DNA of 10,481 nt, from contig CP070761.1 in assembly GCA_020348985.1 (NCBI GenBank), positions 244,862 to 255,342 of the forward strand, in the 5' to 3' direction. The notes below the pieces were generated by a model. That model ran no database searches and was not told the origin of the DNA. It worked only from the letters and a program-made list of their open reading frames with translations. Source of the stretch: Candidatus Thorarchaeota archaeon (GTDB lineage: Archaea; Asgardarchaeota; Thorarchaeia; Thorarchaeales; Thorarchaeaceae). Of this stretch, positions 1,057 through 10,481 are shown in pieces. Made by a program: the position numbers and the translations under genes. Position 1 is the first letter of the stretch. Every line of letters begins with the position of its first letter.

Positions 1057-1599
1057 CTACTCTACCAAAAGAATCGCGTAGCGGTTCATTGTGTCTGAGT
1101 AATCCTTCAGTACATCAATAGGATACCCAATCTGTCTAACTGTCGAGAATACGTCAACACCCATAGCTTCAGGTGTAGGTCTCGCCCGCTTTGGATGTTT
1201 ACAGTCTGCTCTAATTGCAGTACATTCCTCACAAAGTTCACAAGCGTCCATGAACATCAGAAATGTCTTGACATACCCCGATAGAAAGACCTCTTTCTCC
1301 ACTTCCAGGAGTTGAATACTGGTTTCTCGTGTCCAGTCATGACGATCATCAGGATTGTCAAAAGATCTACTGAAGTGAAATATAGCTGCCAGATCGTACT
1401 CATCAAAGAACTCTCTGCAATCCGAAACAGATGGGACGTTCGGGGGGCAGGATGCAGCTTCACCGTAGTTAGGACATCCATACGTGCATTTCATCCGCAC
1501 CCACTGTGCGATGATGACCTGCTTGGGATCAATCCATTTGAAATCGTCAAAGCCTCTCTCACGGAAGATTTTCTTCAAAGCATCTTTTGCCTTACTCAT
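1057..1599 (-). CDS. DUF2284-family predicted metal-binding protein (~180 aa)
   Basis: Cys clusters VRMKCTYGCPNYGEAASCPPNVP and ACELCEECT...CKHP, plus ARPTPEAMGVDVFST and a C-terminal YAILLVE, match DUF2284 as I recall it. I chose the ATG at 1599 (MSKAK...), preceded by GAGGGA, over the ORF-track start at 1677 that overlaps the upstream gene. Confidence 0.85.
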   Translation of the reverse strand: MSKAKDALKKIFRERGFDDFKWIDPKQVIIAQWVRMKCTYGCPNYGEAASCPPNVPSVSDCREFFDEYDLAAIFHFSRSFDNPDDRHDWTRETSIQLLEVEKEVFLSGYVKTFLMFMDACELCEECTAIRADCKHPKRARPTPEAMGVDVFSTVRQIGYPIDVLKDYSDTMNRYAILLVE

Positions 1600-1673
1600 G
1601 TGGTTTCCCTCTATCATCAGTGCAATTTGAGGCGACATTCGAGAGTAAGATATAGCATGAGAATCACGCAATC

Positions 1674-2858
1674 TCAAGTTTCTTCTTCGATGAGGGCCTT
1701 GACTCTCTCAAGAGCCGCATGAATTGTCTCTTTTGACGTTGCATAAGAGAATCTAAGGTAACCTTCCCCATTCTCTCCAAAAGCGGTTCCAGGCAATGCG
1801 GCGACACTTCCCTTCTCCAGCAATAGAGTCGCTACTTCTTGAGACGTCATGCCAGTCTCCATGATATTGGGCCAGGCATAGAATGCGCCGCTTGGCGTAT
1901 AGCAGGAAAACCCTGACACTTCGTTCAGACCTTTGACGATGAGGTCTCTTCTGGTCCGATACTCTTGAAGCATTCTTTGCACGCCGTCTTGACTTCCTTT
2001 TAGTGCGGTTATCCCAGCTATCTGCACAAATGGTGCAGTGCAAGTAAGTGCGTTCAAGAATAGCAGACCGAGCTTCTCCATGAATCGTTCAGGACCAACG
2101 ACATATCCGAGTCGCCATCCAGTCATTGAGTATGACTTGGAGAAACCATCAACAATAATCGACATCTCTTTTGACTCGTCGGCTAGAGAAGGAGAAAAGA
2201 ATTCAGTATCATATACAAGCTTGGAGTAGATCTCATCCGCCAGAATGAAGCAGTCATTCTCACGAGCCAATTCTGCCACTTGTTCCATGTCCTTCTTTGT
2301 CATCACGCTTCCCGTTGGATTATGGGGAGAATTCAACAGAATGAGCTTAGTTCTTGGTGTAATCCTGCTTGCCACCTCATCAGGAGTAATCCTGAAATCA
2401 TTCTCCACCTTCAGACGAATGGTAACCGATTTGGCTCCCACATAATCACAGACAGAGCCGTAGGTCGGGAATCCGGGATCTGGCAGGATTACCTCATCTC
2501 CTTTGGAACAAGTCGCTACAATCGAGAAGAAAATCCCTGGTTTTGCCCCTGGTAGAACGAGTATTTGACCCAGAGACGGTCGAAAGCCGCGAGTAGTCTC
2601 GATTTCGTCCTGAATGGCTTCCTTCAGGGTTTGCATGCCCCCTGTAGCCACATATTCAGTCTGGTTCTTTTCTATCGCTTCGACACCAGCTTTCTTGATC
2701 TCTATCGGAGTAGGAAAGTCCGGCTGTCCAATCTCGAGCCTGTAGACGTTCTTTCCCTGATGCTCAAGTTCCCGAACCCGCTCCAAGACACTGAGGGCAC
2801 CCTCTCCACTCAATCGATACATTCCTTCAGCTAGCTCTCTCAATTGCGTGAGCTCCAA
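1674..2858 (-). CDS. Pyridoxal-phosphate-dependent aminotransferase, class I/II (aspartate/aromatic type)
   Basis: Motifs LEIGQPDF, PGAK, PDPGFPTY, LNSPHNPTG, ADEIY, the PLP-lysine motif DGFSKSYSMTGWRLG, GAFY and GEGYLRFSYA. TTG start; the exact start is uncertain by a few codons. Confidence 0.95.
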   Translation of the reverse strand: MELTQLRELAEGMYRLSGEGALSVLERVRELEHQGKNVYRLEIGQPDFPTPIEIKKAGVEAIEKNQTEYVATGGMQTLKEAIQDEIETTRGFRPSLGQILVLPGAKPGIFFSIVATCSKGDEVILPDPGFPTYGSVCDYVGAKSVTIRLKVENDFRITPDEVASRITPRTKLILLNSPHNPTGSVMTKKDMEQVAELARENDCFILADEIYSKLVYDTEFFSPSLADESKEMSIIVDGFSKSYSMTGWRLGYVVGPERFMEKLGLLFLNALTCTAPFVQIAGITALKGSQDGVQRMLQEYRTRRDLIVKGLNEVSGFSCYTPSGAFYAWPNIMETGMTSQEVATLLLEKGSVAALPGTAFGENGEGYLRFSYATSKETIHAALERVKALIEEET

Positions 2859-2898
2859 TCTTGATATTGATGCGGCAGAGCTTTCCTGTATATCAGAA

Positions 2899-3462
2899 TC
2901 ACTGTTTTACAGCAGAGTTCGTTCTTTTTGAACGACTTGGAATGACCAAGAGAAGACCGAAAACAACACCAAAACTGAGTAGAATCAAAGCCCACTTCAC
3001 TGTCGTAATTAGACTAGCAGCTAAGATGATAGATGGAGATAGGCCAGGGTAAGCAGCTATCTGTGATGCTATCAGCGCGTTTTCCAGAAAATCGGCCGCT
3101 GCTGCCATTATGGGGAGAGCAATCAGTCCTTTGAGCTCAGGCTTGTCAGGATATGCCCTTCTGACTTCCATGGTAATCCCAAAGACGATTGATAGGCAGT
3201 AGGCAATCGGGAAGAGTAAATCAAGCAAATGTACCTGCGACCAAATCCTAAGACCATCAGATCCAAGCGTGTCGAAGACTTGGGCTATCTCCTCGAACGT
3301 ATACACTACTCTTGTGTCTGGCATTGTCACATCGCCGTAGACATCATAGACAAGAGTCTGCGTGGCGTAGCCCATAACGGCTACAATGACCGCGCTTGAA
3401 ACGATTGCCAAAATGAGATTGCGCGTTGTCGCCAGTTTGTCAAGCTTCCGTACGACACTCAT
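2899..3462 (-). CDS. Uncharacterised integral membrane protein (about 4 TM helices)
   Basis: 187 aa with hydrophobic segments LILAIVSSAVIVAVMG, LLDLLFPIAYCLSIVFGI, LIALPIMAAAADFLENALIA and IILAASLITTVKWALILLSFGVVFGLLLVI. A GGAGGT RBS lies 8 nt before the ATG. Confidence 0.8.
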   Translation of the reverse strand: MSVVRKLDKLATTRNLILAIVSSAVIVAVMGYATQTLVYDVYGDVTMPDTRVVYTFEEIAQVFDTLGSDGLRIWSQVHLLDLLFPIAYCLSIVFGITMEVRRAYPDKPELKGLIALPIMAAAADFLENALIASQIAAYPGLSPSIILAASLITTVKWALILLSFGVVFGLLLVIPSRSKRTNSAVKQ

Positions 3463-3470
3463 AATACTCT

Positions 3471-3476
3471 ACCTCC
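3471..3476 (-). promoter_or_regulatory. Shine-Dalgarno site for the membrane protein gene
   Basis: The minus strand reads GGAGGT-agagtatt-ATG(3462). Confidence 0.7.
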
Positions 3477-3483
3477 AACTTCT

Positions 3484-4014
3484 TCAATGAGATGCTCTCC
3501 ACCTCAAGGCTTTCTCTTCGATACTTCGAATGAACTCTGACTTACCATCCGTGTATGCCAGTCTATCATCTCGGAACGTCTGAGCCAATTCAAGTTTAAG
3601 CGCTTCATATTTCTTAGCTTCATACGGATGGGCAAGCAAGTAGTCACGGAAATTGATGTGACGCTCGACATTTGGGCTCCCAATCTGGAAGGTGTGAACG
3701 TGAATGGTGCTACTGGAGTCGTTTTGTGACCTTCTCCTGTCGAAGAAGCGCCTTCTTGGAATTCCATGCTCTCCGTTCGGCTCGTATCCGTTTTCCCGAA
3801 AGGTGGGATCATAGGCGTCAACACGCTCAATATCCTTCACAACAACCAGTATGTCTACAATTGGTTTTGCGTGAATTCCAGGAATGGCTGTGCTGCCAAT
3901 GTGATAAACTGATTCTATCTCGTCTTTCATGATGCTTTCAAGTAACGCCTTTTGTTGCTTGAAGACATCCCCCCAATAGGAGTCATTTGATTCAATCTCT
4001 ACCAGTTCAATCAT
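3484..4014 (-). CDS. GrpB/UPF0157-family protein (nucleotidyltransferase-like fold)
   Basis: Family motifs HIGSTAIPGIHAKPIVDILVVV, GEHGIPRRRFF, HVH, HINFRDYL, YEALKLELA and YTDGKSEFI. The ATG at 4014 is preferred; the GTG at 4029 is an alternative. Confidence 0.92.
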   Translation of the reverse strand: MIELVEIESNDSYWGDVFKQQKALLESIMKDEIESVYHIGSTAIPGIHAKPIVDILVVVKDIERVDAYDPTFRENGYEPNGEHGIPRRRFFDRRRSQNDSSSTIHVHTFQIGSPNVERHINFRDYLLAHPYEAKKYEALKLELAQTFRDDRLAYTDGKSEFIRSIEEKALRWRASH

Positions 4015-4136
4015 AGCTTTCCCTATCACGCTACTCGATTTGACCGGATAAATGGCTCGACTGCGTTATACTCTCAAACCTCAAGGATAACCTAATAAGC
4101 CAAAATCCTCGTGCGTGTCATCGCCACGACAACCAT

Positions 4137-4211
4137 GGCCCGTGTGGTGTAGTGGTAACATAGAGGACTGTGGATCCTCTGCTGCGGGTTCGATTCCCGC
4201 CACGGGCCCCA
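4137..4211 (+). tRNA. tRNA-His (anticodon GUG), intronless, with genomic G-1 and CCA
   Basis: Acceptor stem GCCCGTG(4138-4144)/CACGGGC(4201-4207); D arm GTGT-AGTGGTA-ACAT; anticodon arm GAGGA-CTGTGGA-TCCTC with GTG at 4170-4172; T arm GCGGG-TTCGATT-CCCGC. G-1 (4137) sits opposite C73 (4208), the His identity element. CCA is at 4209-4211. Confidence 0.97.
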
Positions 4212-4212
4212 T
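4179..4212 (+). repeat. 34-bp direct repeat, copy 1 (tRNA-His 3' end; att-like)
   Basis: CTGCTGCGGGTTCGATTCCCGCCACGGGCCCCAT, identical to 5614-5647. The flanking bases mismatch on both sides. Confidence 0.97.
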
Positions 4213-4308
4213 TCTTCGATAGCCACGTCAAGACCATTAGAAAGAAGATGTACAAGTACCTCTCTCTCCTTAGTTTAGGGGAGTATGGACGTTCAGGACG
4301 TGTTGTGA

Positions 4309-5532
4309 ATGAAGCATTCGGATTATCTGGCAGCACTTCTCTTTCTTCTGCTCAGCTTAGCAGTGCATCCGATGCTACTAGCAGACACCCATCTTGTCGG
4401 TCATTCTGATGCTGTAACACATACAACGAAGCAGTATGATGAACCAATCTCATTGGACTCCGAGTCAGATCTCAGTTCTTTTGACTTGAATGGTTCTGGA
4501 ACTCAGAACGATCCTTTCGTAATATCAAATCTCTTCTTCTACCCCGATGAAACTAGTATCACAATCAAAAACACCCGGTCTCATTTGGTGATTGAGAATA
4601 TTGAATCGTGGAATCTGGATGAGTACTCAGGAGAGAATCCTGATGGTATCTCACTGGAAAACGTGACGAATGTTGTCATTCGTGAGTGTACTTTCAAGGT
4701 TCTCGGTTCGGGGATACAAATTGAGAATAGCTCAGATTGTGAGGTTTACAATAATACGATTCACAACAGTGCACGCGGCGTGGTATTGGGTCGTTCAAGA
4801 AACATCGGAGTTAGACAGAACACAGTCTACTCCAATAGTCATGGAATCTCAGTTGGCGACACAAATGATTCCCTGGTTTTCCAAAACACAGTAGTGTATT
4901 CGGCTTCAGAAGGAATCGTCATGTACGGCGAGAACAACCTAGTCTATGCCAATCGATTTGGCTGGAATGGTGCGGGAAACGCGCGCGAACTATCAGGGGA
5001 CAATCGTTGGGATGATGGAAGTGGGCTCGGAAACTTCTGGAGTGACTATGCAGGATCGGACACATATGAGATTCAGGGCCCGGGTGAAGGTGAGGACAGA
5101 TACCCCTCGCTTCTTTCAGGTGATTTTGCAGGTCCTGTTCTGTCAGGGGGGACATGGCTAGGAGGCCTTGGGGAAGGAGGGCCGCCATTGGATCGGCTTC
5201 ATTTCGAGGTGAGTGTGACTGACACCTCGGGAGTTGAGAGCGTATGTTTCTGGTACAAGGTTGGTGGTGGTGTCTGGAACTACACCCAGATGGCACATGA
5301 ACCAACCGCAGACAATCCCGCACGGTATGTCTATGAAATCCCCGGACCGATCTACGGAATCGAGATGGAATACTTCTACTCGGCAACTGACAGTCTTGGA
5401 TATTACTCTGAAACTAGGCATACATCATTCGCCATCTTCACTGACCCGTTTTACTGGTTGGGATGGGCAATTGCTATTGTCACAATCATTGCTGTCACTG
5501 TCATGGCCGTCTGCTACTATACGAGAAGGTAG
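4309..5532 (+). CDS. Secreted, C-terminally membrane-anchored NosD/CASH-like right-handed parallel beta-helix protein
   Basis: Signal peptide (YLAALLFLLLSLAV); GSGTQNDPFVISNL cap; PbH1-like repeats GISLENVTNVVIRECTF, GIQIENSSDCEVYNNTI, GVVLGRSRNIGVRQNTV and GISVGDTNDSLVFQNTV; NRWDDGSGLGNFWSDY...DRYP motif; Ig-like segment (VSVTDTSGVESV...YFYSATDSLG); TM helix WAIAIVTIIAVTVMAVCYY followed by TRR. Confidence 0.85.
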   Translation: MKHSDYLAALLFLLLSLAVHPMLLADTHLVGHSDAVTHTTKQYDEPISLDSESDLSSFDLNGSGTQNDPFVISNLFFYPDETSITIKNTRSHLVIENIESWNLDEYSGENPDGISLENVTNVVIRECTFKVLGSGIQIENSSDCEVYNNTIHNSARGVVLGRSRNIGVRQNTVYSNSHGISVGDTNDSLVFQNTVVYSASEGIVMYGENNLVYANRFGWNGAGNARELSGDNRWDDGSGLGNFWSDYAGSDTYEIQGPGEGEDRYPSLLSGDFAGPVLSGGTWLGGLGEGGPPLDRLHFEVSVTDTSGVESVCFWYKVGGGVWNYTQMAHEPTADNPARYVYEIPGPIYGIEMEYFYSATDSLGYYSETRHTSFAIFTDPFYWLGWAIAIVTIIAVTVMAVCYYTRR

Positions 5533-5613
5533 GCTTCTCTCAGCAACATTATCGCTCAGCATTCATAGAGGGGATGCTCGATTCTGCCTGCTTAACTACA
5601 GCCGCAAACAAGA

Positions 5614-5647
5614 CTGCTGCGGGTTCGATTCCCGCCACGGGCCCCAT
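5614..5647 (+). repeat. 34-bp direct repeat, copy 2 (duplicated tRNA-His 3' fragment; att-like)
   Basis: Exact match to 4179-4212. It covers the T arm, the 3' acceptor strand and CCA, with no 5' acceptor strand upstream. Confidence 0.97.
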
Positions 5648-5650
5648 CGC

Positions 5651-6661
5651 TCATCTGATTTTCCTTTTGGCAACGAAGAGAACAACAAATCCAATGCCGA
5701 CCCCAATGGCCCCTCCGACTATCACCATTGCCACTTCATTTCCCGAATCTGTCGATATCGTGAATGTAGAGCTTGTGAACTGGGTTTCCGAAGCGACAAA
5801 TGCCTCCATGTTGAGCATGCTGGTCTTTTCGCTATGTGCACCATCTTCTAGTTCGTCGAGAAGATTGAGTTCCGCACACTTCTCGAAGTCGTAATTGTAG
5901 AATACCCACATATCGCCAACTTCTGGATCAAAAATCACTGAGTACGCCGTGAGACGCTCGCGACCAGTCCACTGGAGTATACGACGGAAACTGTCGACAG
6001 TGATGTTCTCTGGACTCTCAATCCTATGAAGTCTACCTACACCCAAGTTGTATCTTTCACACGGATACCAGCCCAGCTCGGGCATGACTGGATTGAAGTT
6101 TGTGACAACTTGATATATCCCCTCCTTACTCGTGAAAGCGATTCTTCCGTCTGATCCCGGGGAGATGATTACCGAATCACCGTCCTTATCCACGACGAAG
6201 AACTGAATGTCCCAAACTCCAGTGCTATGTGTTGACCAGAGTGTATACTGTTCGAATAGAGAAACAACATCACCAGAATCAGAGCAGTCTTCGAGGATCA
6301 TAGCCATGACGTTTCGCGGGAATACTTGTTTATCCGTCTCGTTCATTGGTGTCAACGGAATCAAGAACGTATCCACGATCAGACCCTCTGTATTCATTCC
6401 TGCACGAAGATCATCGTATGGCAGTTCCGTTGCGCAGAATACGACGTAGCCAAATCGATCTTCTCGAGGTGGAACAAACCTGACGTTGAAATTGTTGTGA
6501 GATGGCCAGTCCTCGTTTAGGCCAACAAGGACTCTCTCTCCATACGAGGCAGTAATACCGGTACAGGCCTCTACTGGAACTGAAACTGTGCATAGCACAA
6601 TCACAATTGCTAGTGAAGAACCTAGTACTCTCCCTTTCACTTCTTCCGCCTTTGACGACAA
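5651..6661 (-). CDS. Secreted, membrane-anchored Ntn-hydrolase (choloylglycine hydrolase/peptidase C45-C59-like)
   Basis: The signal peptide ends in VEA and is directly followed by CTGITAS (Cys nucleophile, codon 6563-6565). Further motifs are GLNEDW, GMNTEGL, VVTNF, CERY and TAYSVIFD. A Ser/Thr-rich linker leads to TM VAMVIVGGAIGVGIGFVVLFVA and KRKIR. The start may be the TTG at 6661 or the GTG at 6640. Confidence 0.85.
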   Translation of the reverse strand: MSSKAEEVKGRVLGSSLAIVIVLCTVSVPVEACTGITASYGERVLVGLNEDWPSHNNFNVRFVPPREDRFGYVVFCATELPYDDLRAGMNTEGLIVDTFLIPLTPMNETDKQVFPRNVMAMILEDCSDSGDVVSLFEQYTLWSTHSTGVWDIQFFVVDKDGDSVIISPGSDGRIAFTSKEGIYQVVTNFNPVMPELGWYPCERYNLGVGRLHRIESPENITVDSFRRILQWTGRERLTAYSVIFDPEVGDMWVFYNYDFEKCAELNLLDELEDGAHSEKTSMLNMEAFVASETQFTSSTFTISTDSGNEVAMVIVGGAIGVGIGFVVLFVAKRKIR

Positions 6662-7761: not shown

Positions 7762-10481
7762 ATGCCGCGGCTGTCTCTGTATGTGGCAATATTCGTTGCA
7801 CTAGCACTGGCCATGCAGCCCGCATTAGTACCTGTAGTTCCAGTCGTTGAACTCGAAATGAAAAACCAACTGTCTGACACGAACAACTCGGGACCTCGCG
7901 AATTTGCAGTTGCTCCAATGAGCCCCGAAATTGCCTATAGTGGAGATCCTGGTGGTGGTTATTTCCCTGAGGCTCAGAAGGCCCCTACGGGGCCGCAAAC
8001 CCTAATCGTGATACTGGTGTACTTCAGTGATCTATCTAATACCGAGAGCAAATCCACGATTAGCTCGATTATCTTTGAGAACGTCAGTGACTACTATGAG
8101 GAGATTTCGTATGGTCAGTCAGCGATAACCGGAGCAGTCACCGATTGGTTCAATCTTGGTGCGGCAAAGGCATACTATGGGGCCGACGGAGACACATCTG
8201 GAGTCATAGATGACACGGACGATGATGGTGACAATGACAGTTGGCAATTAGTGGACGATGCACTTGCCGCCGCAGATCCGTATGTTGACTTCTCTTCTTA
8301 TGGTCACATCATGGTGGTCCATGCAGGCAATGGGCAAGAGAGCTCAGGCGTTTCTGACGACATATGGTCGGTGCGCTGGTCGTGGCCAGGTCATTTCCGG
8401 ACGAACGAGAAGACATTCGACTCCTGCTCCATAGTTCCCGAATACCAAGGTGGAGACGTTAACCGATCAATAGGAGTCATTGCTCACGAGTTCGGGCACG
8501 ATATAGGCCTCCCCGATTTGTACCATTACGGGGGTGCCGGCGGTGATGACTTGGTTGGCATATGGGGGCTAATGGCATCAGGCAGCTGGGGCGGCTCGCC
8601 ATCAGGAACCATCCCGACTCATATGACTGCGTACTCAAAGCTTATGCTTGACTGGTACGCAGACAATGAAATCTATGACCTTACTTCTGGGTCTTACGAG
8701 GCTACTCTCACTTCAAGTTACAATCAGACATCCGGCTTACGAGTCATAAGATACAATGTGTCCGAGGAGTACTACTACCTCGTTGAGTCGCGTTATCAGA
8801 TGGGCTTTGATTCCGGTATCCCGGAAAGCGGCGTTCTGATTACAAGAGTTGACACGACCAAAGGAAGCGGTCAGGGTATCGTCCAAGTACGCACCGATTC
8901 GATCTACAGCCTTTCATTGGCTACTTGGACTCCTGGACAGGAGTTTGTAGACGAGGTCTCTGGTTTTGCAGTGGAGGTCTTGTCACAAGAAGGCACATCA
9001 TTTAGAGTAAGAGTGACAACCGACCCTTTGGATGGATGGTTATACGAATTCGCCTTGAGCGGAAATGACCAGAGTGACTATCAAAGCCCCGTTATGGCGA
9101 CGAACCGCCTCGGTACTCTATATTGTGTCTACGTTGTTTGGGACTCTAGCTCTAGTCAGTATGCCATACATGTCAAGACAAGTGTAGACGGAGGCTACTC
9201 CTGGTCGAAGGCATTTGACTTCAGTTCATCATCACTCTCGTACATCAATCCATCAATTGTCATAGACCCTTATGATGACACCATCTACATTGCGTTCGAA
9301 AGCACTGATGGAAACTCGCATAGTGTGAACCTTGCTCGTTACTACTCAGATCATACCCAGTGGTCGATATCAACTGTAGCCTCCAACGCCAGAGATCCTA
9401 GTATTGAAATTGATTACGTATATGGGTCTGACAATTGGCTAATGATTGCGTATGAATCATGGGCTCGAGGAGAAAGCAGTACAATCAGGCTGGATAGGAG
9501 CACTAACCACGGAACGTCCTGGATCAATCGCAACTCACTAAGCATCGATACATTCAACCTGCAGCCTGAAATCGTTGGTTCGTATGGTTTCGATGGCTAC
9601 CAGAGGTGGCACCTTGTCTTTGTTGGAGGAAACACTCTATCAAACATAACCAAGATTGTTACTTGTAGGTCCAGTGACTACTTTGGCACGTACAATGGAT
9701 GGTTTCAAACTTTCCCAACGACCATCACTCACCCCTCTGTGACTGCGGTAAGAGGGACTCCAGAGGTCTACTATGCGTGGACAGTGAATAGCTACGAGGT
9801 GACGCCATCCTATCAACATGACATCTACATTTGGTATAGCAGAGATCACGGAGAATCCCTCTCTTCAAACACAACCCTTGTGAATACCAATGATGATGAG
9901 AAGTACCCGAGATTGGCCACAGACAATCAAGACTATGCCCGTTACGAAAAGGGAACAGTGTATCTCACATATTTCAACGGCGACAGTGTCTGTGTACGTA
10001 GAATATACTATGACCGGCCCAATGTTATTGGTGAAGAGGAGGTGCTCTGCAAAACTGCACATGACACGCCCGGCGGTATAGGGATAACAACACACTACAT
10101 TGGCAGTGTTGCGGGACGGTTTTACGCCGTTGTCTCATGGCTGAACAGCACTTCCGACCATGAAGTAGTCTGTTCAGTTCCTGGATACTACAAGGAGTTT
10201 GGTGCATCGTCACCCGGATACGCAATAATAGTCAATGGACAGGATTACACATGTCCCATTACACTTGGCCTGATGTTCGGCTTCACTTACGACATTGAAG
10301 TAGGATCTTATCAATCAGTTAGCAGCGAAGAGCGACTGAGGTTCGACAGTTGGGAAGCCCTTCCTGACGGTACAAGTGTTGGGACACAGAACTTCACGGT
10401 CTCTGTCAACAGGTTTGACACGGGCTACGATTTGATGTCGACTACTGAGTACTATCTCACCGTGACATCAACCTATGGCGT
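7762..10481 (+). CDS. Large secreted M6-family (immune inhibitor A-like) zinc metalloprotease with Asp-box beta-propeller region; 3'-truncated, >906 aa
   Basis: Not in the ORF track. I translated frame +1 by hand and found no stop from 7762 to the end. Signal peptide MPRLSLYVAIFVALALAMQPA. M6 motifs LIVILVYFSD, VSDYYEEISYGQ, VVHAGNGQE...DIWS, IGVIAHEFGHDIGLPDLY (HEFGH at 8485-8499), GIWGLMASGSW, P..MTAYSKLMLDW and EYYYLVESR...GFDSGIPESGVLI. Asp-box-like SVDGGYSW, STNHGTSW and SRDHGESL follow. Confidence 0.93.
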   Translation, partial: MPRLSLYVAIFVALALAMQPALVPVVPVVELEMKNQLSDTNNSGPREFAVAPMSPEIAYSGDPGGGYFPEAQKAPTGPQTLIVILVYFSDLSNTESKSTISSIIFENVSDYYEEISYGQSAITGAVTDWFNLGAAKAYYGADGDTSGVIDDTDDDGDNDSWQLVDDALAAADPYVDFSSYGHIMVVHAGNGQESSGVSDDIWSVRWSWPGHFRTNEKTFDSCSIVPEYQGGDVNRSIGVIAHEFGHDIGLPDLYHYGGAGGDDLVGIWGLMASGSWGGSPSGTIPTHMTAYSKLMLDWYADNEIYDLTSGSYEATLTSSYNQTSGLRVIRYNVSEEYYYLVESRYQMGFDSGIPESGVLITRVDTTKGSGQGIVQVRTDSIYSLSLATWTPGQEFVDEVSGFAVEVLSQEGTSFRVRVTTDPLDGWLYEFALSGNDQSDYQSPVMATNRLGTLYCVYVVWDSSSSQYAIHVKTSVDGGYSWSKAFDFSSSSLSYINPSIVIDPYDDTIYIAFESTDGNSHSVNLARYYSDHTQWSISTVASNARDPSIEIDYVYGSDNWLMIAYESWARGESSTIRLDRSTNHGTSWINRNSLSIDTFNLQPEIVGSYGFDGYQRWHLVFVGGNTLSNITKIVTCRSSDYFGTYNGWFQTFPTTITHPSVTAVRGTPEVYYAWTVNSYEVTPSYQHDIYIWYSRDHGESLSSNTTLVNTNDDEKYPRLATDNQDYARYEKGTVYLTYFNGDSVCVRRIYYDRPNVIGEEEVLCKTAHDTPGGIGITTHYIGSVAGRFYAVVSWLNSTSDHEVVCSVPGYYKEFGASSPGYAIIVNGQDYTCPITLGLMFGFTYDIEVGSYQSVSSEERLRFDSWEALPDGTSVGTQNFTVSVNRFDTGYDLMSTTEYYLTVTSTYG

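Follow-up and report, generated by a model that had tools for sequence, protein, structure and literature searches.

How did a single gene come to lie between an intact tRNA-His gene and an orphan copy of that gene's own 3' end? The question is raised by a contig from a metagenome-assembled genome (MAG, labelled G000) of a Candidatus Thorarchaeota archaeon. The window, i.e. the whole stretch of DNA analysed here, is this one entire contig of 10,481 bp. The MAG itself comprises 131 pieces linked by N runs, totals 3.16 Mb with a completeness of 86%, and encodes a eukaryote-type actin (PF00022, E 7e-132). The unit between the two tRNA copies, called the tRNA-His islet below, is the scar of a site-specific integration, with the order attL, cargo gene, attR. 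An integrase-type scar is concluded because the islet shows a partial-tRNA direct repeat and a rebuilt tRNA, because the repeat borders of such islets lie at or near tRNA loops and because the locus is an integration hotspot. As to how the scar was made, we tentatively favour, with a probability of roughly 0.45, a non-autonomous one-gene cassette similar to the cis-mobilizable elements (CIMEs), which entered about as it is now with an integrase supplied in trans.

A preliminary description of this DNA, made from its letters, reported a perfect 34-bp duplication of the tRNA-His 3' end, 1,435 bp apart, enclosing one gene with 96 nt and 81 nt of flanking DNA, and this was correct in every detail. 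The two copies are identical at 34 of 34 positions and enclose 1,401 bp, the 1,435 bp being measured from start to start. In 200 dinucleotide shuffles no 34-nt match turned up, even with up to 3 mismatches allowed, and no third copy with at least 20 of 34 matches was found in the window. The repeat covers the last base of the anticodon stem, the variable loop, the T-arm, the 3' strand of the acceptor stem, the CCA and one further T. Within it the inverted repeat GCGGG/TTCGATT/CCCGC, also noted beforehand, is present in both copies (4184-4200 and 5619-5635) and equals the T-arm, which is the likely crossover core with a 7-nt overlap. The only tRNA that ARAGORN calls in the window is tRNA-His(GTG) at 4138-4211 (+), which scores 65.7 bits against Rfam RF00005; from the sequence, the G-1 typical of tRNA-His is g4137 and faces discriminator C4208. 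Repeat copy 2 is not called as a tRNA by ARAGORN or Rfam, and ARAGORN found no second tRNA-His assembly-wide.

The 5' side of the tRNA-His gene belongs to the core genome, since in many genomes across the family tRNA-His is bordered by the upstream block of genes (DUF2284, aminotransferase, 187-aa protein and GrpB). The sequence 3' of the gene was different in every relative examined. This combination of a conserved 5' side and a variable 3' side identifies tRNA-His as an integration hotspot. The downstream flanks of the relatives all differ and no orthologous empty site could be aligned; in a genome of the same genus (G001) tRNA-His carries no duplication. When the tRNA-His genes of relatives were compared, as had been proposed, different small inserts were present in other genera. 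One of these genomes (G084) holds an insert of ~0.95 kb (L094:1985-3038), at whose end lies a decayed fragment starting at the T-loop, and a second decayed fragment of the same genome lies on a separate contig. The insert encodes a 138-aa zinc-ribbon open reading frame (ORF) and a 103-aa HNH-like ORF whose match to HNH endonuclease is borderline (21.8 bits, cut-off 21.4); nuclease-based mobility is conceivable at this site. Metagenome contig L110 (JABAOF010139618.1:87-862) carries tRNA-His and, 0.68 kb away, an inverted 3' fragment starting in the T-stem, and the flank beyond this fragment resembles the native flank of genome G004. An att x att inversion would be expected to give the inverted layout of L110, which recalls the integrase-driven inversions in Thermococcales.

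The three independent inserts of the 3' type at tRNA-His (the window, G084 and L110) have in common only the part from the T-loop to the 3' end, and this fits the crossover in the T-loop, between the T-stem arms, that had been suggested for the window. Other layouts were also seen. Genomes G004 and G060 carry 5' fragments of tRNA-His plus some upstream flank, 0.73 and 1.78 kb upstream respectively, and G050 has a 351-bp duplication taking in the whole tRNA. In G067 a 41-nt 3' half of tRNA-Glu lies 1.6 kb downstream of tRNA-Glu. The tRNA-His of G004 (L098:7371-7474) shows in addition an apparent 30-nt intron-like insertion exactly between the 5' strand of the T-stem and the T-loop, i.e. at the presumed crossover core. 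An old idea holds that introns of archaeal tRNAs serve to block sites of integration, and the insertion in G004 fits it. The same cargo gene in a larger integrase-bearing island at tRNA-His, which had been named as one of the findings that would overturn the cassette idea, was not found in any relative searched.

The preliminary description also predicted further small cassettes bounded by tRNA fragments in this lineage, and at least four more occur in the MAG, with others in relatives. The genome was scanned in three ways, by BLAST of its tRNAs against the genome, by a scan for the T-arm-acceptor-CCA motif, and by a genome-wide census of perfect repeats of at least 22 nt with copies within 12 kb of each other. 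The three scans converge on one short list of islets, which is given with the features of the window in Table 1. The tRNA-Ile islet carries one membrane-protein ORF that reads through the repeat; its tRNA bears an intron and was missed by ARAGORN in the default mode. The copy in the tRNA-Glu islet consists of 3 nt of leader and nt 1-37 and ends in the anticodon loop; the cargo is one 794-aa NosD-like beta-helix gene of the same family as the cargo at tRNA-His. One gene for a 217-aa protein with two transmembrane (TM) segments is found in the tRNA-Leu islet and two enzyme genes in the tRNA-Ser(GCT) islet. Moreover, increasingly decayed tRNA 3' ends lie between single genes at 492-497.7 kb of the MAG, and a tRNA-Phe fragment (22/30) lies 478 bp downstream of tRNA-Phe. 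All the islets of the MAG are compact, with intact ORFs and spacers of ~80-530 nt. The census gave ~26 repeats, among which the tRNA cases look stand-alone, the sole other one checked being part of a 334-bp paralogous repeat.

Table 1. Coordinates of the tRNA-His islet and its neighbours in the window, and of the other tRNA-fragment islets of the MAG
Feature	Position	Strand	Basis
Upstream block: DUF2284, aminotransferase, 187-aa unknown protein, GrpB	1057..4029	-	Pfam, synteny
tRNA-His(GTG), intact, with encoded G-1 and CCA	4137..4211	+	ARAGORN, Rfam RF00005
Repeat copy 1 (attL-type), 3' part of the working tRNA-His	4179..4212	+	Exact repeat
Left spacer, 96 nt, non-coding	4213..4308	.	Sequence and ORF list
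Cargo gene, 407-aa NosD-like right-handed beta-helix protein	4309..5532	+	Pfam, translation, hydropathy
Right spacer, 81 nt, non-coding	5533..5613	.	Sequence and ORF list
Repeat copy 2 (attR-type), orphan 34-nt tRNA-His 3' fragment	5614..5647	+	Exact repeat
Gene for 336-aa membrane-anchored protein, weak AAT/C45-like match	5651..6661	-	ORF and Pfam; convergent on tRNA
tRNA-Glu(TTC) islet: perfect 40-nt 5' copy, period 2,623 bp	G000:C1:1349674-1352377		
tRNA-Ile(GAT) islet: perfect 43-nt 3' copy from anticodon loop, 890 bp downstream	G000:C1:1795258-1796251		
tRNA-Leu(CAA) islet: 85-nt 5' copy, 94% identity, 1,265 bp upstream	G000:C1:1837936-1839311		
tRNA-Ser(GCT) islet: 27-nt perfect 3' copy (41 nt at 93%), period 3,682 bp			

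The cargo of the tRNA-His islet is a fast-evolving NosD-like beta-helix protein. It matches NosD (PF05048, E 1.5e-19, 70.7 bits with a cut-off of 23.6) and Beta_helix (PF13229, E 6.5e-14, 52.3 bits with a cut-off of 25.9), and its closest relative among 40 genomes is only 37% identical. The family is expanded in the MAG (~40 matches). The hydropathy profile shows hydrophobic segments at residues 5-27 and 380-406. At its N-terminus the protein has a segment of signal or anchor type; its C-terminal part comprises a beta-rich domain and then a TM helix, with RR directly after the helix. From the hydrophobic N-terminus and the C-terminal TM helix the product is predicted to be a membrane-anchored cell-surface protein. 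The exact product is not on record, and no further protein among 5.8 billion matched it at E 1e-10 or better. In a search of genome contigs the sole match was partial, 33% identical and located in a bacterial MAG.

The idea that such units serve to swap surface genes in the manner of integron cassettes stood in part. Two islets carry NosD-like genes and two carry other membrane proteins, whereas the rest hold enzymes or transporters. A third NosD-like gene (689 aa, G000:C1:231150-233219) lies directly upstream of tRNA-Ser(GCT). Thus ~3 NosD-like genes adjoin tRNAs, against ~0.75 expected at random placement, a rough estimate with no formal test behind it.

Other origins of the duplication were considered and rejected. 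A tRNA-like RNA processing signal is contradicted by repeat copy 2, which lacks an upstream 5' acceptor strand to pair with and receives no Rfam score, and it is also disfavoured by the orientation of the fragment relative to the cargo, which differs among islets. The target duplication of a transposon or casposon does not apply because the 27-43-nt duplications are much too long, known target-site duplications being far shorter. An insertion copied on a template from elsewhere in the genome was discarded as well, the nearest paralogue of the cargo being 33% identical.

On the reading that we favour, a 34-bp copy of the tRNA-His 3' end would have arrived on a small DNA circle that recombined with the chromosomal tRNA-His in a reaction of the tyrosine-integrase type. 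The crossover would most likely have taken place in the T-loop, with the 7-nt overlap between the 5-bp arms of the T-stem. The incoming copy would rebuild the working tRNA-His (attL), and the original 3' end of the gene with its native flank would be pushed 1,435 bp downstream (attR). The integrase would act in trans and come from a virus or plasmid outside the MAG; like the circular intermediate and the crossover point, it is something that we infer. Entry as a small cassette is favoured because three islets keep perfect repeats of 34-43 nt, and because all islets are compact with intact genes and free of pseudogene debris. Archaeal att sites typically consist of 40-50 bp of identical sequence within tRNA genes, with a range from 8 bp to more than 100 bp, and the anticodon loop and the T-arm are the classical sublocations used by integrases (PMC8371274). 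The canonical Cre/loxP model has four att sites of identical sequence (PMC8371274), so that under it a circle bearing the site could be a substrate. The preliminary description had proposed an insertion with duplicated tRNA 3' end, intact cargo and no integrase remnant, and this is supported.

The recombinase itself was sought in several ways. No integrase-like ORF is present in the 10.5-kb window, and neither matches to PF00589, PF16795 or PF00239 nor any integrase fragment were found in the 86%-complete assembly of the MAG. When 16 integrases from the same family were made into a lineage profile, this also gave nothing in the assembly (best E 0.026). The lack of any PF00589 match extends to XerA-type proteins, and XerA-like proteins (E <1e-40) are found in other families of the phylum. 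Tyrosine recombinases occur in 9 of 18 relatives, where they are sporadic and score weakly. An attP- or integrase-bearing partner was found in none of IMG/VR, the JGI contigs, the MAG and the integrase loci of relatives, which together are an incomplete search space.

Several of the results weigh against a cassette moved in trans. None of the 16 integrase genes of relatives has a tRNA within ~10 kb (the one 'tRNA-Ser' that ARAGORN called there is spurious and located within an ORF). The repeat 33-mer is absent from IMG/VR, and the 28-mer found in JGI contigs only two orthologous tRNA-His loci. The two spacers have no 7-9-mers in common, and neither sequence similarity nor arm-type motifs are common to different islets. 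For some archaeal integrases, moreover, the identical stretch alone is insufficient in vitro (PMC8371274). With no near-identical copy of the cargo anywhere, no recent transfer is traceable. Foreign composition was not seen either, in GC or in dinucleotide signature: the islet is host-like, with a GC of 0.472 vs 0.478 and a dinucleotide distance inside the genome's null distribution. Of the features by which integrative elements are usually recognised, the islet has the partial-tRNA direct repeat and the intact tRNA but neither integrase nor foreign composition. The census can also be biased towards small islets, since in an 86%-complete MAG of 131 pieces large integrase-bearing elements may have remained unbinned.

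The same facts can be read in another way, namely that a virus or plasmid with its own integrase integrated at tRNA-His and was later pared to one useful gene, either by internal deletions or, once elements had accreted in tandem, by excision via alternative att sites. The outcome would correspond to 'gene capture' as in Sulfolobus, or equally to the degenerate parts of tRNA-anchored islands. Decay is the commonest documented fate of tRNA-integrated elements: in Thermococcaceae a partial and a full tRNA flank elements of 9-23 kb (PMC9897764), and the islands of Prochlorococcus contain partial tRNAs and degenerate remnants throughout (10.1101/2020.12.28.424599). Old scars do persist in the MAG, as is seen from the row of decaying fragments at 492-497.7 kb, the host-like composition fits a long residence, the fragmentation of the MAG hides large elements, and the helper integrase that a cassette needs was not found. 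However, a remnant of this kind would have to have kept a 34-nt repeat that is still perfect, as are the 40- and 43-nt repeats of two other islets, while losing everything except an intact gene with 96 + 81 nt beside it and leaving no pseudogene debris and, in the whole assembly, no piece of an integrase. The same compactness is seen in at least five independent islets. We consider such a reduction less likely than the cassette but a serious alternative. It is quite unlikely that no site-specific recombinase was involved at all, and that DNA of a relative, or a circle looped out of an islet that the relative already had, entered by homologous or illegitimate recombination. In such a Campbell-type or homology-facilitated route the conserved tRNA would serve as portable homology and be duplicated in the process. 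The recombinase not found in the genome, the cargo composition equal to that of the host, and the duplications in G004, G060 and G050, which include 55-150 nt of diverged flank as if from the homologous locus of a relative, all speak for it. Nevertheless the borders of the repeats are concentrated in or next to the anticodon loop and the T-arm, the sublocations typical of integrases, 27-43 nt is little homology for a crossover, and the first fragment-bounded unit cannot arise by this route.

The assembly itself has to be considered, since the window consists of one 10.5-kb contig from a metagenome bin, into which a free 1.4-kb circle or a contig of another strain might have been threaded via the shared 34-mer. 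Four sediment runs (Logan) belonging to three studies contain the locus with its cargo at an identity of at least 99%, a point on the side of the cassette reading. The Logan contigs, built with k=31, all stop inside the 34-nt repeat, and the junctions of an empty site or of a circle have no private 31-mer; this leaves room for an artefact and also counts against the cassette. One run contig, however, crosses the 5613/5614 junction between the right end of the cargo and the mid-tRNA sequence and reaches 30 nt into the repeat. Moreover, the cargo depth is not above that of the flanks (the lower cargo value in run X1, 4.6 vs 5.9-9.7, is one figure per contig with low coverage and carries no weight), a 1.4-kb circle without replicon is unlikely to persist, and the same layout is present on several other contigs of the MAG and in other assemblies. 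An artefact is thus highly improbable.

Integrase-less att-flanked units, additive tRNA islands, tycheposon islands and archaeal gene capture are all already established, and no description of mini-islets such as these was found in the Asgard mobile-element literature searched. The CIMEs of streptococci are integrase-less, att-flanked derivatives of integrative elements. The islet resembles them in that attL and attR are kept without integrase or transfer genes, both features being found here, and in that mobility would depend on the recombinase of another element and units can accrete in tandem at one site. CIMEs differ in having a known parent integrative and conjugative element with the same att sites and a size of several kb or more, whereas the islet is a single 1.4-kb gene unit of an archaeal host without known parent or integrase. 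No autonomous element sharing its att site, as is required of a CIME, was found in IMG/VR, JGI contigs, the MAG or the integrase loci of relatives. Genomic islands of the additive type anchored at tRNA genes have also been treated in the Alteromonas literature. In additive and tycheposon islands of marine bacteria (10.1101/2020.12.28.424599) flexible genes likewise pile up on one side of the tRNA, partial tRNAs separate the insertions, newer insertions push the older ones away, and much of the material has no integrase. Tycheposons, unlike the islet with its single NosD-like ORF, themselves encode a tyrosine or serine recombinase and often bring a replication module as well; here, moreover, the host is archaeal and fragments of both the 3' and the 5' type occur.

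Archaeal gene capture (She et al. 2001/2002, cited in PMC8371274) has in common with the islet the tRNA target, the partial-tRNA direct repeat and captured DNA that remains after integrase function is lost. The archaeal elements are however of ~9-23 kb or larger and have integrase genes or, in the SSV type, split halves at their borders. In the islet the 96/81 nt of non-coding DNA beside the repeats leave no room for int(N) or int(C), and PF16795 is unmatched. The closest case in size is an insert of 1.87 kb in Caldiarchaeum subterraneum, which runs from a tRNA-Thr 5' fragment to tRNA-Thr (PMC3293823). It is small, fragment-bounded, archaeal, from an uncultured population and without canonical integrase. 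It belongs, though, to a repeated element of six copies with its own putative DNA-binding/recombination protein, whereas the islets of the MAG are unlike each other and carry ordinary accessory genes.

A wider claim would be that the family uses a dedicated cassette system in which single accessory genes, often for surface or membrane proteins, travel as circles of ~1-3 kb. In such a system a tRNA half or 3' end would be the sole cis element, capture would take place at the cognate tRNA genes, and the recombinase would act in trans, being either unrecognised or virus-borne. We regard this as unlikely. The comparison with integrons is nevertheless instructive. Like an integron cassette, the islet is a single-ORF unit with little non-coding DNA, presumed to form a circle of ~1 kb, non-autonomous and able in principle to stack. 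It differs in having no IntI, attI or attC, with PF00589 unmatched in the genome and a tRNA fragment as site. In addition, the islets lie at many tRNA genes and not on one platform, and the orientation of their genes is not uniform.

As for the neighbouring genes, the stop codon of the gene at 5651-6661 lies 3 nt past repeat copy 2 and the gene is whole, which means that it was not damaged by the insertion. A large gene for an M6 (immune inhibitor A-like) peptidase (7762-10479), which runs off the contig end, is likewise located on the variable side of tRNA-His. This peptidase and the C45/AAT-like protein are candidates for envelope or secreted hydrolases.

The flexible genomes of Asgard archaea are large and contain much acquired DNA, yet few of their mobile elements are known. 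Here at least five compact units of one or two genes lie at tRNA genes of a genome without recognisable integrase, and relatives hold others. Their recurrence points to a cheap and repeated route for the entry, and perhaps the exit, of single genes, in this case mostly for envelope proteins. If the islets are only scars, tRNA-His is still an integration hotspot, and this lineage is quick to pare down the elements that integrate. If the units truly moved in trans, tRNA genes would be general landing pads for minimal cassettes; and if a cassette system does exist, it would build the flexible genome and, being based on tRNAs, amount to a functional analogue of integrons.

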